A stretch of DNA of 64,000 nucleotides from contig JALWXN010000004.1 in the NCBI GenBank assembly GCA_027078545.1, forward strand, positions 160,001-224,000. Direction: 5' to 3'. A model generated the notes under the pieces. That model was not told where the DNA came from. It made no database searches and saw nothing but the letters and a program-made list of their open reading frames with translations. Position numbers and translations under genes: made by a program. Source of the stretch: Nitrososphaeria archaeon (GTDB lineage Archaea > Thermoproteota > Nitrososphaeria > Geothermarchaeales > JDFR-13). Within the stretch, counting starts at the first letter, position 1, and each line of letters opens with the position of its first letter. Below, one piece after another: positions 674 to 60,536 of this stretch.

Positions 674-850
674 TTAGGGATCTATACGCCTCAGCTCCTC
701 CACCAAATTTTTTACCTTGAGGTCTAGGTAGGGGTCGTCCGGAGAGAACTTGGCTGGATGGGCTACATTAGTAGATCCTCCACAGATGGGGCACCTCTCC
801 TTCAAAGTGTATCGGCCACATTCTCTACAGATCCTTATCCTACTCTTCAT
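674..850 (-). CDS. nop10: H/ACA RNP protein Nop10 (58 aa, not in ORF track)
   Basis: Manual translation MKSRIRICRECGRYTLKERCPICGGSTNVAHPAKFSPDDPY...; Zn ribbon and HPAKFSP motif; directly downstream of aIF2alpha. Confidence 0.95.
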   Translation of the reverse strand: MKSRIRICRECGRYTLKERCPICGGSTNVAHPAKFSPDDPYLDLKVKNLVEELRRIDP

Positions 851-19792: not shown

Positions 19793-19890
19793 GGGCCCGT
19801 GGCCTAGCCTGGTCAGAGCCCCTGCCGGGCGGCTAGGGCGCCCGGCTGATAACCGGGAGGTCGCCGGTTCAAATCCGGCCGGGCCCACCA
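19793..19890 (+). tRNA. tRNA-Ile(GAT) with 20-nt non-canonical intron at about 22/23 (19817-19836)
   Basis: Acceptor GGGCCCG/CGGGCCC, anticodon arm CCCGG-CTGATAA-CCGGG, T-loop TTCAAAT, encoded CCA; extra 20 nt in D arm with relaxed BHB. Confidence 0.93.
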
Positions 19891-20834: not shown

Positions 20835-22520
20835 TTATTTAATTATATTTGCTAGTATGCCCGCTAACAGACTCGTTCTTTTCTCTATTTCTTCTCCGCT
20901 CCATTTCTTATATTTATCAACTAAGTATTTGGTGTTTAATGCTAAACCCGATTTTTTATAAGTCTCTTCCTTTTCATTATAGTTTTTAGAACCTAACTTG
21001 ATGTTTTCATCCTCCTCTAAGAGAGTTAAATTTCCTATTTTATAAACTAATTCAGGATTATCTAGTTTATCACGACGACTAATTGGATAAATATGCTCTA
21101 GTGTCAGGTCTTTTGAGGGGCGTTTCGTGTTCTCAGAGCTCTCAATTTCAAACAGCAAAGCTTTAGCTAATCTTTCATGTTTTCTTTCCTTAAATAAGAA
21201 TTTAAGTAAACTTTGCTTAAACTCGTTATCCTCTGGAAATAGGTTACGCAGTTCTTGGTAATATTTTTCAGTGTTATTATTCTCAATAAGCTCTATCAAT
21301 CGTCGTATTTTCTTTTCAAATTCACTTGGTGATTTAGAACATATTGTTCGTCTTATAAGTGTATAATATAAAGGTTTTAGTTTCTTCTCTATCTCTTTGT
21401 CGTTTATATTTCCTTTAGGATCTGCATATTTTTCAAGAAGAGCAAACATAATGGGAATGTGTTGTCTTATACCGATGGAGAAAAGAGTAGTTAAATAATC
21501 CACTATTGTCTCTTTCTTCCAATATATTTTCGATGGTGCTGAGATGTTCCTGTAATATATATTAAGAAATCGTTCTAGTTCGTCGAAAAATTGTCTGACA
21601 TCATCAAGATTATTAATCCTCTTTTTTATTTCTTTAAAAATATCCTTTTCTCTTACAAAGTCATATTTGTATATAAGATAATATCTTATAACATATTTCA
21701 GTTCTCTACTTTCATATTCTGAGAGGAAGCTATTCCACTTTTCATCAAAACGTATAACCTGTGTTTGATCCTCAGAATTACTTAGAATACCTAGAAGATA
21801 GTTTTTTATAAGGTCTAGTGGAGCTAAGGTAAGCCCTCTAGCGTTTAAAGTTTCGAAAATTAGAAAAGCGTTATGTTCAGAGTCCACTTCTACTACTACA
21901 GTAATTATATTCTCTTTTATCCCGATGTCAACAATCTTACTTAACCATTCTTCAATTTTCTGATTATTTTTCTTTATTTCTCTATCTATAATTTTATAGG
22001 ACTCTACATAAGTTGTTAACATATTATTCCATGATGTATATTTTTTATCGTTTAGAAGTTTTCGCAGTTCCCTTTCCTTTTTCTGTAAAGAACCTTCTTT
22101 GATTGTTATAATTTTTTCGTAGAATTGTCTATCAATCTTATTAGGAATGACACTTAGTTTCTCATTGCCTACAACATCATGATGACGCATAAGAAACAGT
22201 GAATGGATCCTATTGCTAAATTTTGTATAATTCATATTAATAAGGTAGTCTCTTAGAGCAGCCAAGAAGAGACAGGTAGTTATTAGTCGTTGTTGACCAT
22301 CGATTACAACATATTTATTCCTACCCTTTGATGTTAGAACCATCGGACCAATAAAATATTCCTCTCTAGACCCTTGCTCTATGATATCTAAAATAAATTC
22401 CTTTGCTTCCTCTTTCCAAGAATAGCTTCTCTGATTAATAGGAACTTCAAAATCTCTTGTCTGCAACAACTGTCCTAATGTTTCACTCCTAACATCTGTT
22501 ACAACTTTTTTGTTACTCAT
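20835..22520 (-). CDS. GmrSD-type (DUF262 + DUF1524/HNH) modification-dependent restriction enzyme
   Basis: VP..QRSYSW, IDGQQR, FETLNARG..L...DLIKN, LEHIYP...IGNLTLL...N. Confidence 0.92.
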   Translation of the reverse strand: MSNKKVVTDVRSETLGQLLQTRDFEVPINQRSYSWKEEAKEFILDIIEQGSREEYFIGPMVLTSKGRNKYVVIDGQQRLITTCLFLAALRDYLINMNYTKFSNRIHSLFLMRHHDVVGNEKLSVIPNKIDRQFYEKIITIKEGSLQKKERELRKLLNDKKYTSWNNMLTTYVESYKIIDREIKKNNQKIEEWLSKIVDIGIKENIITVVVEVDSEHNAFLIFETLNARGLTLAPLDLIKNYLLGILSNSEDQTQVIRFDEKWNSFLSEYESRELKYVIRYYLIYKYDFVREKDIFKEIKKRINNLDDVRQFFDELERFLNIYYRNISAPSKIYWKKETIVDYLTTLFSIGIRQHIPIMFALLEKYADPKGNINDKEIEKKLKPLYYTLIRRTICSKSPSEFEKKIRRLIELIENNNTEKYYQELRNLFPEDNEFKQSLLKFLFKERKHERLAKALLFEIESSENTKRPSKDLTLEHIYPISRRDKLDNPELVYKIGNLTLLEEDENIKLGSKNYNEKEETYKKSGLALNTKYLVDKYKKWSGEEIEKRTSLLAGILANIIK

Positions 22521-22991
22521 TAGAATAACCTCCTAACGACTCTGAATATGTTACCTACTAGCTTGTAATATCTGTTAAATATTTGCTTCAATTACATATA
22601 TAAGTCGATTCCTTACACAAACACTGGGAAGAAAGTTCAAAGACTATATTAATTCCTTTATGTAAATAATTATTTCGAACAAGTTCCTCATTTAAGAACA
22701 TGGGTGGGAAACCTATTATAAACCTGAGTTTGCAACACTTTGTCTTATAGGTGTTCAGCTACGAGAAATATAGTATATTATATGCATATGAACATCTCCA
22801 TTGACAATAGTGATAATAATGATGTAAAAGTTTGAATGAATCTTCAAGAACATCCAGGACTTTCAGATAAATTGTGAAGGGGGAAAGGGTAGTCTGATAT
22901 ATATTCTACTTTCAATTAGATACTTCCAACCAAGACTTATCTATAACAAGTTAAAAAAATCAATGAAGAGGCCATAGAAAACCGGACAAAC

Positions 22992-22999
22992 TTTATAAA
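22992..22999 (+). promoter_or_regulatory. TATA box of tRNA-Asp promoter
   Basis: TTTATAAA preceded by purine-rich BRE-like bases, about 30 nt upstream of the tRNA. Confidence 0.7.
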
Positions 23000-23027
23000 A
23001 CCGGAGTCTGAAAATATAGAGTTGACT

Positions 23028-23125
23028 GCCCCGGTGGTGTAGCCCGGCCAGCATACCGGCCTGTCGACAAGTATCCACGGGCGGTCAGCCGGTGGACCCG
23101 GGTTCAAATCCCGGCCGGGGCGCCA
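23028..23125 (+). tRNA. tRNA-Asp(GTC) with 20-nt canonical 37/38 intron (23067-23086)
   Basis: Acceptor GCCCCGG/CCGGGGC, anticodon stem CCGGC/GCCGG, central BHB helix CTGT/GCGG, encoded CCA. Confidence 0.94.
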
Positions 23126-23195
23126 AAAGTCCTAATTATAACGGAAGGATTGAGAATACCTATGAGTCTAGCCCCTAGGATCTCTGATTCATTTT

Positions 23196-24596
23196 TCACT
23201 CTTCTACTCGGGTTATGGAGTTTCTTATTATCTTTATAAGCTCATTATCCGTCACCCGTTCGTCTCTCAGGTTCTTGAAGTCGTATCTGGTGATGATCAG
23301 TTTGTTTATGCCTCTTCCATCTATTATGAATTCGAACTCGAATTGGGGGTGGTCATCAAACACCTCGTTGAAGACCCCCTCTAGATAGGGATATATAAGA
23401 ATAGTATTGGGTATAGGGGCTTTCCCATCATCCTTGCCCTCCAAGACCCTATTTACCTTATGAGCCAGCCTCGAGTAGACATACATCTGCCTGACATCAT
23501 TAACATCTATCGGGATCTTGTCATACCCCTCCTTATCCTGGTCCTTAGATCCCTTCAGCTCTTTGTACTTTACATCCACTACCAGTAGGATCCTACGGTT
23601 CTTGGATACCGTGATGTCCGGATACTGTGCAAAGACTTCACTGTCCCTATTGATGCTCATGTCTCGTAACAGCTTACCGATGGGCCTTTGATGCACCACG
23701 TCATACCCAGTGAGCTCACGCTTCAGCAGTTGATAGATGAATCGTTCGAAGAGATCGTTCATCTTGATGAAGAATCCATAGACCTCCCTGCCCCTCCCCA
23801 CCTCTATCCTGTGGAGGAGTAGTCTCGCCAGATTGTATGGCCTCCTAAACCTCTCATTTAACCTGTTGAAGACCGGTTCCCGATTAGTTGCTAACACCTT
23901 TGTATCCCTGTACATTGTTACTTCGCTCAACATATGTGATATCAGCTTTGCATAGGTCACCGTATCCCTATGTCTAGACATCTGTTCACATAGAGCGGCT
24001 GCCAGACGGAGAACCCTATTTAGTTCGTTATCCATGGACAGTGTATACTGCTCCTGTGTAAAGGTTATGAGCTGGTGTGGAAGCTTCCTAATCTGTCTAG
24101 AGACCAGTAGCTTCCCCCTAAGGAATGGCTCATCATAAACCCTCCTAATGTATCTACGGTATACCCCGTTCTGAAGCTCCCTATAGAGCATGAACGTATA
24201 TAGATACATTAGAACCTCGTGCAACGCCCTCTCAGACACCCCTCTCTTCCTGAGCATAGCATGGGACTCCTTCAACTCCAGCTGTAGCGCTGTGTCGAGC
24301 ATCCTAATGAACGCGATAGCCTCATCCTGTGTATCGAACAACCCTCTATCCCTAGCCCTCTTAAAAACCTTGGGGAATATGGTGAGGTTTATCCCATCTA
24401 CATGTCCAAACCCGACATACTGGTTAGTATAGATGTTGACCTCTCCCCCCAGCCCAAGCTGGATCCTCAATATTCTCTCACGATTGATTACAACCCTCTC
24501 CTCTATCAGGGCTAACTCCCTCTCCGATACTCCTAGCTCCTCCTTCTTAAACGTAGCTCCTGGCTCGTAGATCGCTAAATCCTTAGCTCTCCTCAT
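23196..24596 (-). CDS. mcrC: McrC-family PD-(D/E)XK nuclease subunit
   Basis: YVG, LRGKL, DNELNR, MNDLFERFI, PDI...VDVKYK, D..QMY.Y. Confidence 0.92.
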   Translation of the reverse strand: MRRAKDLAIYEPGATFKKEELGVSERELALIEERVVINRERILRIQLGLGGEVNIYTNQYVGFGHVDGINLTIFPKVFKRARDRGLFDTQDEAIAFIRMLDTALQLELKESHAMLRKRGVSERALHEVLMYLYTFMLYRELQNGVYRRYIRRVYDEPFLRGKLLVSRQIRKLPHQLITFTQEQYTLSMDNELNRVLRLAAALCEQMSRHRDTVTYAKLISHMLSEVTMYRDTKVLATNREPVFNRLNERFRRPYNLARLLLHRIEVGRGREVYGFFIKMNDLFERFIYQLLKRELTGYDVVHQRPIGKLLRDMSINRDSEVFAQYPDITVSKNRRILLVVDVKYKELKGSKDQDKEGYDKIPIDVNDVRQMYVYSRLAHKVNRVLEGKDDGKAPIPNTILIYPYLEGVFNEVFDDHPQFEFEFIIDGRGINKLIITRYDFKNLRDERVTDNELIKIIRNSITRVEE

Positions 24597-26581
24597 CAGC
24601 CCTCCTCTTCTTTTCTGGCCTGTGACGAGCCGCTACCCTTCAACCTCTCCCGGAATTTTTCAAGACCTTCTATATTGTTGAGCTCTTCCATCCACTCTCT
24701 TGGATCCTTCAGATGGTACTTACCACCCCTTTCACTGAGGAAAACACTTGATAGGCCTCCCAATACAACGGCGAGGTCATCCCACCTATTATAGAAATAC
24801 TCCTGTAAAAGAGGCATTATCCTATACACCCATACCTCTTTAAACGTCTCAAATGCATCATTTTCGTTTTTGGATCCAGCTAAGACCTCGAGGAAATAGC
24901 TATGCCCAATCCTATGATCCCTATCCAAGTAACTCTCAATTCTCTCGTTCAAAACCTCCAGGATCTCCTTCAGATGCTTTGCCAGCTCCTCCTTCTCCTC
25001 GCCAATCTTTCTAGCCACTTCTACCAGGGTATCGGGATCGGGGGGTATCTCGAGGAATGCAAACCGTCTCCTCAATGCATAGTCGACAAGGGCGATACTC
25101 TTATCCGCAGTATTCATGGTACCGATAATATAGAGGTTTGGAGGAACCGCGAATAGCTCCTTTGAATAGGGCAGGGTTACCAACACGTAATTCTCTCCAA
25201 ACAGCCTCTTATCCATCTCCAGGCAAGTAATCAACTCACCAAGTATCCTAGCCAAGTCACCCCTGTTTATCTCATCAATAACCAGATAGAACTTGCGAAC
25301 AGACTCACCTGATTCGTCATATTTTTTCTTATACTCATTAAGATCATCTGGGTTTTTAAGAATCTCACTAACGCCTTTCTTATAGCCTAGATCTTCAAGT
25401 AGGGCTTCTAAGGCCCTACGAGCCAGATCCTTAAACACACCATCCTCAACCTTATACATTATTCTACCCTTTTCATCGGTCACGGCTCTATAGCCCTCAA
25501 CAAACTCCTCATAACTATATGATGGATGGAAAGTGACAACCTCATAGAGATCTTTATTGCCACAAGTCACCCCATCCACGTATTTCAGAGCAAGAAAAGT
25601 CTTACCCGTACCAGGAGGACCATACAAAACAACCTGTCCATACATCTTTAGAAGATTATCAATATCTGAATATCTTTCCTCCTCTCTTAAGTTATCCTTC
25701 TCTTGATCATTATGGTTGCCATTGTGGTTACCCTCTTCCTTCGAGTGTTGGCCATTATTGTGTGTATAGAGATATATGAAACCAGAAAACCAAACAGTTT
25801 TGTATTTCACCCTACAAATCATATTTTTATTCAGTATTTCGTTGAAATTCAAATAATGAATTTCCATAAGATATTTTCTCACATAAATTTCGGGTTCATT
25901 TTCAATTTCTTTCACCTTTGGAAGATGGTTACATGTTTTTGAAAAGGCTATGGCATTACTATCATATGGACAAAATATCTTCGGATTAATCAAAAATAAT
26001 CCTTGAGTTAATTTTGGTACTCTTATCCCAGGTTCTGATCGTATTTCCTTAAATCTTTTAGAAAAGTAGCTTATGTCATTAACAAGATCCTCTATGGTAT
26101 CATAATTACTTATTCTTTCCCCAAATTCCCATAACTTGGGGACGATGTCCTCGATGTTATTGCTATCGGGATCAAAGAAGAATCTTCGCTTTGGGGAGGG
26201 TTGTAATGGCTGCCCGGTTCCAACTGGTAAATCATATTTTTTGCTAGTTCTTTTAATGCGTATCTCTTCTGGACGGATAGGTTTTTTACTTCTTCCTGCA
26301 GTATGGATAGAATAAATTATCGTAAATGGATCAATTAAATATTTTCCTTCTTTACTCTTAAACTTCTCCTTTTCCATTTTAATGCTTACTATTGATGTTA
26401 GTTCATCCACTAGTTCTTCATAAAACAATGCTTCTTCCTCGGGATCGGTCTTGACCTTCCTCCATTCGTCGAACAAATCTTTCCAGAACTCTAAGTATTT
26501 CTCGACCCAGTTATCATTATAACCTTTCATTAATGCCCTAATTTTTTGGTCGTGTTTCTTAATGCATTCCTCTAATGGCAT
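24596..26581 (-). CDS. mcrB: McrB-family AAA+ GTPase
   Basis: GPPGTGKT, TFHPSYSYEEFVEG, IDEINRG, GTMNTAD, ALRRRF, IGHSYF, PLLQEYF. Confidence 0.95.
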   Translation of the reverse strand: MPLEECIKKHDQKIRALMKGYNDNWVEKYLEFWKDLFDEWRKVKTDPEEEALFYEELVDELTSIVSIKMEKEKFKSKEGKYLIDPFTIIYSIHTAGRSKKPIRPEEIRIKRTSKKYDLPVGTGQPLQPSPKRRFFFDPDSNNIEDIVPKLWEFGERISNYDTIEDLVNDISYFSKRFKEIRSEPGIRVPKLTQGLFLINPKIFCPYDSNAIAFSKTCNHLPKVKEIENEPEIYVRKYLMEIHYLNFNEILNKNMICRVKYKTVWFSGFIYLYTHNNGQHSKEEGNHNGNHNDQEKDNLREEERYSDIDNLLKMYGQVVLYGPPGTGKTFLALKYVDGVTCGNKDLYEVVTFHPSYSYEEFVEGYRAVTDEKGRIMYKVEDGVFKDLARRALEALLEDLGYKKGVSEILKNPDDLNEYKKKYDESGESVRKFYLVIDEINRGDLARILGELITCLEMDKRLFGENYVLVTLPYSKELFAVPPNLYIIGTMNTADKSIALVDYALRRRFAFLEIPPDPDTLVEVARKIGEEKEELAKHLKEILEVLNERIESYLDRDHRIGHSYFLEVLAGSKNENDAFETFKEVWVYRIMPLLQEYFYNRWDDLAVVLGGLSSVFLSERGGKYHLKDPREWMEELNNIEGLEKFRERLKGSGSSQARKEEEG

Positions 26582-27122: not shown

Positions 27123-27279
27123 CCCCCCGTAGCTCAGTGGCTAGAGCGGCCGGCTGTAGCTGTCTCGGCCCACGGATGACTGGGCGTATGCCTTGGGTTG
27201 AGTCCGTGGCGGCCGGCGGAGACAGGGCGATGTCCCCTCCAGCGGCAGGTCGTGGGTTCAAATCCCACCGGGGGGACCA
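27123..27279 (+). tRNA. tRNA-Tyr(GTA) with two introns: 37/38 (27160-27221, 62 nt) and 39/40 (27224-27242, 19 nt)
   Basis: C1-G72 acceptor CCCCCCG/CGGGGGG plus A-CCA; removing both introns gives perfect arm GCCGG-CTGTAGA-CCGGC; both introns fit BHB geometry. Confidence 0.88.
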
Positions 27280-33999: not shown

Positions 34000-35615
<1,616 letters not shown>

Positions 35616-59142: not shown

Positions 59143-59577
59143 ATGTATAAATATATAAATGAGACTTGGAGGCGGCTCTGGTCGGATCCCAAGTATAACC
59201 GTTATCTAACCCAGATGCGTATGAAGTGGCGTAGGGAGCCTGCTATTGTTAGGGTTGAGAGGCCCACTAGGCTTGATAGGGCCCGTGCCCTTGGCTATAG
59301 GGCTAAGCAGGGATATGTGGTTGTCCGTGTAAGGGTTTCTAAGGGTGGGCTCCGTAAGATACCTCCTAAGCTGGGTAGGAGGCAGAAGAGGATGGGTATC
59401 TCCAAGATTAAGCGTCAGCTATCTCTCCAGACCATTGCTGAGCAGAGGGCTAAGAGGAAGTTTAGGAACCTGACTGTGCTTGGGTCCTACTATGTTGGTG
59501 AGGATGGTAAGTATAAATGGTTTGAAGTAGTTATGAGGGATGAGAATCACCCTGCTGTAAAGTCGGTGAGGAGCTAG
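59143..59577 (+). CDS. rpl15e: Ribosomal protein eL15 (short form)
   Basis: [32 protein letters not shown]. Confidence 0.96.
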
Positions 59578-60536
59578 AACCCCTGCTGTCTAGGCTTCAG
59601 CGGCTTGAATAGCTCTCTTAGGAGGACCGTTGCATATTCTCCCCGGCCGAGGGTAAACTCAAGAATTGCTTCACCACTCTCCCTGGATAGGCTTATCTCA
59701 TCTAATATACGTATATAGGTGTTACGCACCCCTCCGTAGAAGTCGTATCCAGCGTGTCTCAGCATGAAGAAGCGCTTCTTTAGTCTGAGGGCCTTCTCCC
59801 TATCCATCCCCAGTAGGTCTTCCAGCTGTGGGGAGGGTGTGGCGTATCCCACTAGTGGGAGTGTCTGTGGTGGGTTGGCGCCCCTCTTCACGAGGTTGTT
59901 GATGGAGAGGTTGAATAGGTATGCCTGTAGGGCCTCATATTTTACTCTCTCGAGTCTCGGCGGTGGATCCTTCTTTATGGCCTTGTATCCATGTATATGG
60001 TTGTTCCTCGAGTGGCCGAACCTCTGGTAGCCATAGTAGTTGAGAATCCTCGTCTCTCCCCTGTTTATCAGCCTTATAGTCTCGAGGACATCGTCTAGGT
60101 CTTCCCCCGGCGGTATGAGAACCCTTATCCTGAATCTGTTTCCTATGTGGATATCTTCTGGCTTGTATGTCTCGTCGATCCTCCCTACTAGGGTGTATCC
60201 CTCCCTATATATCCTGGTCCTAGAGACTATGTGTATCCATGCATCTGAGTATTTATCCTTCCTCCCTATCAGCCTGGCGCCATACTTCTTGATACTCTCC
60301 TCCACATCTCTGCTGGAGACTCCCCATGGCTTGAATATTCTGTAGAGGTACCACCCCCTATCGCCGAGCATGTCTCTACGTATTATCTCCTCTACCTGGA
60401 AGCTGCCCACTCCGTGTTTTATCCTACATTCTATGTGCCTGCCTCTAGTGGTGTAGTAGCATAGGCCTATGGCTACATCCTCATTTACATGGCTGCGACG
60501 GTACTCCATAGTCACCAGTCTCTCGGCTCTATACAC
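59574..60536 (-). CDS. truD: TruD/Pus7-family pseudouridine synthase (compact)
   Basis: [34 protein letters not shown]. Confidence 0.9.

Follow-up and report, generated by a model that had tools for sequence, protein, structure and literature searches.

The tRNA-Tyr(GUA) gene of this Nitrososphaeria archaeon lies between a McrBC-type gene pair and a valyl-tRNA synthetase-like gene within the stretch of 64,000 nt from contig JALWXN010000004.1 that was analyzed here (hereafter the window). The gene was not called by ARAGORN at default settings; Rfam places a tRNA at 27123-27276 with an insert of 84 nt and returns no guide-family match at the locus. It is interrupted by two introns that flank a mini-exon (Table 1). 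Bulge-helix-bulge motifs are present for both introns, and EndA is encoded. The motif of intron 2 has a central helix with 4/4 pairs, a 3-bp inner helix, and a weak outer helix, and that of intron 1 is relaxed, with two G.U pairs in the central helix and a 2-bp inner helix. Other intron boundaries, in which 27213-17 would serve as tRNA positions 39-43, yielded no splice motif in a hand check.

Table 1. Features of the tRNA-Tyr locus and two protein genes of the window
Feature	Positions	Strand	Basis or remark
tRNA-Tyr(GUA) gene, whole	27123-27279	+	genome's only tRNA-Tyr gene
Exon 1, tRNA positions 1-37	27123-27159	+	sequence reading, Rfam
tRNA 27-34, partner of the 3' guide of intron 1	27149-27156	+	pair check, covariation
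U35 (predicted target, 27157) and A36, both unpaired	27157-27158	+	fold and covariation
Intron 1 at 37/38, 62 nt	27160-27221	+	relaxed splice motif
5' guide, small hairpin with G37 and intron +1 to +3	27166-27169	+	pair check
Upper hairpin with K-turn, predicted L7Ae site	27170-27209	+	fold, covariation
3' guide, antisense to tRNA 34-27, directly 3' of the stem	27210-27217	+	
Last four bases of intron 1, central helix of the intron 2 splice motif with 27237-27240	27218-27221	+	
Mini-exon A38-C39, two bases	27222-27223	+	
ACA (A38, C39, and first base of intron 2), doubling as 5' bulge of the intron 2 splice motif	27222-27224	+	12 nt from pocket
Intron 2 at 39/40, 19 nt	27224-27242	+	splice motif
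Exon 3, positions 40-76, CCA encoded	27243-27279	+	
Nop10 match, H/ACA core protein; outside the element	725-850	-	
Divergent TruD/aPus7, 320 aa, rival enzyme; outside the element	59574-60536	-	

Two further tRNA genes of the window deserve mention. An intron-containing tRNA-Asp(GTC) at 23028-23125 was missed by default ARAGORN and found by Rfam, and the tRNA-Ala(GGC) that ARAGORN reports at 19793-19890 has the sequence of a tRNA-Ile(GAT) whose D-arm carries an insertion. On the minus strand, a GmrSD-type gene and the McrBC-type pair (20835-26581) stand amid three tRNA genes; because both are missing at L098, a locus syntenic with this genome, the stretch is probably an acquired defence island.

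A preliminary description of the locus had claimed that the 62-nt intron contains an 8-bp stem with tandem GA pairs and a GTT bulge, which was confirmed pair by pair. The stem 27170-77/27202-09 consists of seven Watson-Crick pairs and one U.G pair and is followed by tandem G.A pairs (27178-79/27200-01), a GUU bulge (27197-99), and an outer stem (27180-85/27190-96) that closes on a 4-nt loop. The tandem G.A pairs and the 3-nt bulge ending in U, both conserved, make up the K-turn. Together the 8 bp and the two G.A pairs amount to 10 layers from the pocket to the second G.A, the height of the GA stem found in all complete H/ACA RNP structures (PMC4652768). The two antisense elements that had been proposed hold up as well: the 3' guide forms seven Watson-Crick pairs and U33.G with tRNA positions 27-34, which places U35 at the stem base, and the bases preceding the stem form 4 bp with G37 (27159) and intron +1 to +3 around a 3-nt loop. 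Only U35 and A36 stay free between the two pairings, at the base of the K-turn stem, giving the bipartite arrangement of an H/ACA guide with the target U and the next base unpaired and with a 3' guide duplex. It has to be noted that G27209 could wobble with U35 rather than close the stem.

When the acceptor, D, and T stems and the 8-bp stem were enforced, the guide fold was the minimum-energy structure at 37 °C, both in the full precursor and after removal of intron 2, with a guide helix probability of 0.35 in the former and 0.89 in the latter. At 65-80 °C, a protein-free model gives a guide helix occupancy of only 1-15%, and the fold may therefore depend on proteins and ions in a thermophile. 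The competing helix CTGTCTC/GAGACAG, of which the preliminary description had warned, is real (27160-66/27219-25, 7 bp) and buries the ACA; it is not conserved, shrinking to 3 bp in G004, a genome of the same genus, and was rejected as a lower stem on these two grounds. Of 200,000 shuffled versions of intron 1, five had the 8-bp K-turn stem combined with an 8-bp guide at G34, and seven had the variant with a 5-bp guide and the 5' flank.

Both guides could also pair (6+5 bp) around the U at 35083 in the 16S rRNA gene (16S nucleotide 1021; stretch 35071-35093), which by offset count differs from the known S. islandicus U1009 site. This match is probably due to chance, being one of 13 genomic sites at the threshold, and the guide of G004 would mismatch it. 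The 16S rRNA gene itself (34063-35561) is not adjacent to the 23S rRNA gene, which is encoded on the opposite strand of C4 at a distance of about 80 kb.

Conservation was assessed in 123 distinct tRNA-Tyr-like gene sequences, drawn from relatives, from the phylum at large, and from metagenomes. In the 102 introns of 35-120 nt, K-turn hairpins were sorted by stem length and by the tRNA position to which the base immediately following the stem pairs. The combination of 8 bp with the next base pairing to G34 was found in 23 introns compared with 0.06 in shuffles, although this and the following counts overstate independence because the sequences are related and the K-turn descriptor was loosened after data inspection; the remaining filled combinations are the same junction counted differently. 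For covariation, 25 K-turn introns were used that could be parsed with at least four guide pairs. Pairing at stem positions 1-7 is kept in 24-25 of the 25, each position with three to five standard pair types, and the 3' guide tracks exon changes at tRNA positions 27 and 28. Selection took no account of the 5' flank, whose result is therefore independent of the descriptor loosening; this flank pairs with G37 in 24/24 introns and with intron +1 in 24/24, the latter through four pair types. In G004, three compensatory stem changes are found. Thus, the orthologous introns, whose comparison the preliminary description had named as a check, keep the K-turn, the 8-bp stem, and the antisense element with compensatory changes, and by these alignments the intron element is a real, conserved RNA element.

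A different design is present in 45 Tyr introns that are devoid of a K-turn. Here, the guide starts at G34 and a second helix is formed with the D-loop or D-stem of the tRNA, and the ACA is positioned at 14-15 nt in 39 of the 45 (loci L031-L080, L302-L334, and others). Over all 102 introns, this pattern occurs 41 times versus 0.5 in shuffles with the splice end fixed. The D-loop pairing covaries at position 20 (U-A in 23 introns, C-G in 4, A-U in 5) and at position 17 (C-G in 32, U-A in 2). In most K-turn-less introns, the ACA also begins the splice helix, which is a competing reason for its presence. However, this helix reads ACAG in 35 of the 45 but in none of 37 K-turn-type introns (a class for which 12 variants were assigned by eye) and in only 2 of 40 other introns, and in the same-genus genomes G001 and G003, and also in G007, the ACA lies at 14 nt outside the splice helix. 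From these comparisons, the two H/ACA rulers appear to be near-alternatives around one fixed register, which is predicted neither by a splicing role nor by a TruD role. It seems an even call whether many archaeal pre-tRNA-Tyr guide Cbf5 to themselves by either of two interchangeable designs (K-turn plus 10-layer stem; ACA at 14-15 nt plus a D-loop/D-stem lower helix), both of which occur within this genus.

According to a further suggestion of the preliminary description, the ACA, which is present only as long as intron 2 has not been removed, links modification to the order of splicing. This proposal fared less well, and the caveats that accompanied it, an ACA at 12 nt and a weak lower stem, both hold. 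Productive H/ACA guides carry the ACA at 14-15 nt (PMC2377435, PMC4652768), and some guides with a 13-nt spacing were non-functional (PMC2377435); where a lower stem should have 8-9 bp, the precursor offers no more than 4 bp with intron 2 or the ACA-burying helix of 7 bp. The two-intron layout occurs in five genes (that of this genome, G000, and those of same-genus G002, which shares the locus, of G004, and at L098 and L199), with ACA spacings of 12 nt here and 12, 13, 13, and 14 nt in the other four, and an ACA near the required spacing is missing from 19 of the 25 K-turn introns. Moreover, two of the three ACA bases are determined by the tRNA, and the guide fold is predicted before as well as after the loss of intron 2, which would therefore tie modification to intron 1. 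An ACA-based coupling of modification to the splicing order of intron 2 is thus doubtful. Equally tentative is the idea that the exon-built ACA bulge of two-intron genes might let Cbf5 and the splicing endonuclease compete and so link modification to splicing order. Natural guides that have neither ACA nor lower stem are active (PMC11077068), and in Haloferax, the ACA is dispensable for typical reactions (PMC7075261). In intron 1, the K-turn is probably the main anchor and the 12-nt ACA dispensable.

As for the splicing order itself, the central splice helix of intron 2 has 4/4 pairs with intron 1 in place and 3/4 after its removal. Since this helix uses the last four bases of intron 1 and the motif of intron 1 requires the joined anticodon stem, intron 2 should be excised before intron 1. 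In G001 and G003 (loci L004 and L005), the 3' part of the tRNA-Tyr gene holds a second insertion of 25 nt between duplicated 38-43 sequences, for which no clean splice motif was found in the seven registers tried.

Several known systems resemble parts of this arrangement. For Sulfolobales, H/ACA targeting of Psi35 in pre-tRNA-Tyr is proven, and stand-alone Psi35 H/ACA sRNAs are found there and in Aeropyrum (Sso1, Sto1, Sac1, Mse2, Ape7, and S. islandicus sR115) (PMC2651775, PMC11077068). Intron 1 has in common with them the U35 target, the pairing to the anticodon arm and intron, and the 10-layer GA stem with K-turn. However, those sRNAs are encoded by separate genes, act in trans, and have a full lower stem and an ACA at 14 nt, whereas here the intron itself is the guide, the 5' duplex is a hairpin, and the ACA, part of which is exonic, is at 12 nt. 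Atypical H/ACA-like guides that lack a lower stem or ACA include S. islandicus sR109, sR136, sR148, and sR563 and the Pyrobaculum H/ACA-like RNAs (PMC11077068, PMC4652768). With these, intron 1 shares the K-turn upper stem as anchor, the long 3' guide, and no need for a functional ACA, and its 10-layer K-turn stem with 3' guide fits their description. They are free sRNAs that target rRNA, whereas the element here is located inside a tRNA gene and embedded in its own substrate rather than separately expressed as a small RNA acting in trans. A box C/D guide resides in the pre-tRNA-Trp intron of Haloferax and other Euryarchaeota, and a putative C/D RNA in the tRNA-Met intron of Nanoarchaeum (PMC11408192, PMC3491384). 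The tRNA-Trp intron likewise contains L7Ae-type motifs aimed at the anticodon region of its own tRNA, but it has two motifs and directs 2'-O-methylation by fibrillarin in trans, whereas a single K-turn and pseudouridylation are predicted for intron 1. By analogy, intron 1 would work like the Psi35 guides of Sulfolobales and the ACA-less atypical guides and sit like the C/D guide of the tRNA-Trp intron; it is not classed as a classic H/ACA RNA because it departs from these in ACA spacing and lower stem. In a literature search that covered few subscription journals, no intron-encoded pseudouridylation (H/ACA) guide was found.

We consider it likely that intron 1 serves as an H/ACA-like guide for pseudouridylation that is built into its own substrate and directs the formation of Psi35 in cis. 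The core of the earlier reading, an intron-encoded pseudouridylation guide, is thus upheld by conservation and covariation, with activity as a prediction, and its add-on of ACA and splicing order is weakly supported. In the precursor, the 3' guide can take the place of the 3' strand of the anticodon stem, and the 5' guide can hairpin onto G37 and the first intron bases, which puts U35-A36 unpaired at the base of the 10-layer K-turn stem. If the element behaves like known H/ACA RNPs, L7Ae would bind the K-turn, Nop10 and Cbf5 (with Gar1) would dock on the stem, and U35 would be converted to pseudouridine by Cbf5, in the simplest case on the very molecule that carries the guide. Modification would have to precede the excision of intron 1, as the guide helix cannot coexist with the anticodon stem or with the splice motif of this intron; intron 2 would leave first, the RNA would refold, and intron 1 would then be removed. 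The cis-guide reading is supported by the K-turn-less relatives, in which the register is retained and the second H/ACA ruler, an ACA at 14-15 nt, is present. Speaking against a guide are the spacing of the ACA, the atypical lower stem, the low guide helix occupancy at 65-80 °C, and the presence of a TruD with a catalytic motif.

Cbf5, Nop10, Gar1, and L7Ae are all encoded in the genome. Among its 107 K-turn-like hairpins, the intron is the best U35 guide candidate (8 bp; the next best has 5), and no stand-alone U35 guide was found in this 92%-complete genome. TruD is present as a single, short copy that belongs to the two weakest matches of 53 genomes and gave no match to PDB sequences with phmmer. 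By pattern matching, it keeps the G-x-K-D catalytic motif and the N-terminal Lys and may therefore be active. Compensation by the guide for a defective TruD was not borne out: introns of the guide type are also seen where TruD is full-length and where its basic pair is intact, and enzyme loss is therefore no general explanation.

The same guide could instead act in trans, with one precursor or an excised intron directing Psi35 on another pre-tRNA-Tyr. The C/D intron of Haloferax tRNA-Trp does act in trans (PMC11408192), and the excised intron 1 would retain the K-turn, the stem, and both guides; this is nonetheless unlikely, as the fold within one molecule has the lowest energy at 37 °C and all but one of the 25 K-turn introns have a 5' leader of 6 nt or more, enough for the hairpin to close in cis. 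Alternatively, the intron could open the anticodon arm and present U35 to stand-alone TruD/aPus7, as eukaryotic Tyr introns do for Pus7, with L7Ae merely stabilizing the fold. Such a role would suit the motifs kept by the encoded TruD, and it is known that P. abyssi aPus7 makes Psi35 and that eukaryotic Psi35 is intron-dependent (PMC2651775). We judge it improbable, given that P. abyssi aPus7 requires no intron (PMC2651775), that the TruD found here is short and weakly matching, and that the fixed 10-layer stem and the 14-15 nt ACA of the relatives, both H/ACA rulers, would be left unexplained. Pairing and K-turn might also serve splicing only, as a scaffold for the motif of intron 2 or as an L7Ae-controlled checkpoint on the removal of intron 1. 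The guide helix does stack on the central helix of intron 2, where it could replace the missing outer helix, and it blocks the motif of intron 1; the same geometry, however, is found in 20 K-turn introns that have no second intron, and splicing does not require U35-A36 to be free at a fixed distance from the K-turn, which makes this explanation quite improbable.

A reading of the K-turn as one half of a 2'-O-methylation guide of the box C/D type is very unlikely. In its favour are the resemblance of the motif to boxes C and D, a possible pairing of 27168-75 with the T arm, and three other tRNA introns in the genome that resemble C/D-type self-guides for position 34. However, the bases upstream of the D-like box belong to the stem, where their pairing shows compensatory changes, and are therefore not a free guide. 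Furthermore, the T-arm match is missing in G004, only one K-turn is present where two C/D motifs are required, and Rfam gives no C/D match. Chance folding in a GC-rich intron is hardly tenable: loose K-turn-like hairpins with 7-9 bp do arise in 8% of the shuffles, but the full geometry does so in only 5-7 of 200,000, and its conservation with covariation contradicts chance.

The three other introns belong to tRNA-Met(CAT), tRNA-Lys(CTT), and a tRNA-Lys(TTT) outside the window (G000:C4:248049-248168 (+), 115540-115671 (-), and 292081-292233 (+)). Each contains a 9-bp antisense to positions 31-37(+2) of its own tRNA, after which come, in this order, a D-like box, a 3-bp stem, and a C-like box. 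Position 34 has its pairing partner in the fifth base ahead of the box, and the two covary (G:C34, G:C34, A:U34). Judged by these features, they look like single-motif C/D self-guides for 2'-O-methylation at position 34.

If intron 1 is active as a guide fused to its own substrate, it would be the pseudouridylation counterpart of the C/D guide in the tRNA-Trp intron and would explain how Psi35 could be formed without a separate guide gene. Eukaryotic Psi35, which depends on an intron, would thereby gain a parallel in archaea. Forms with only the K-turn or only the ACA would be natural single-anchor substrates and therefore allow a direct test of whether each H/ACA ruler suffices alone. More broadly, an active guide would assign a function to the long tRNA-Tyr introns across Thermoproteota, ammonia-oxidising archaea included.
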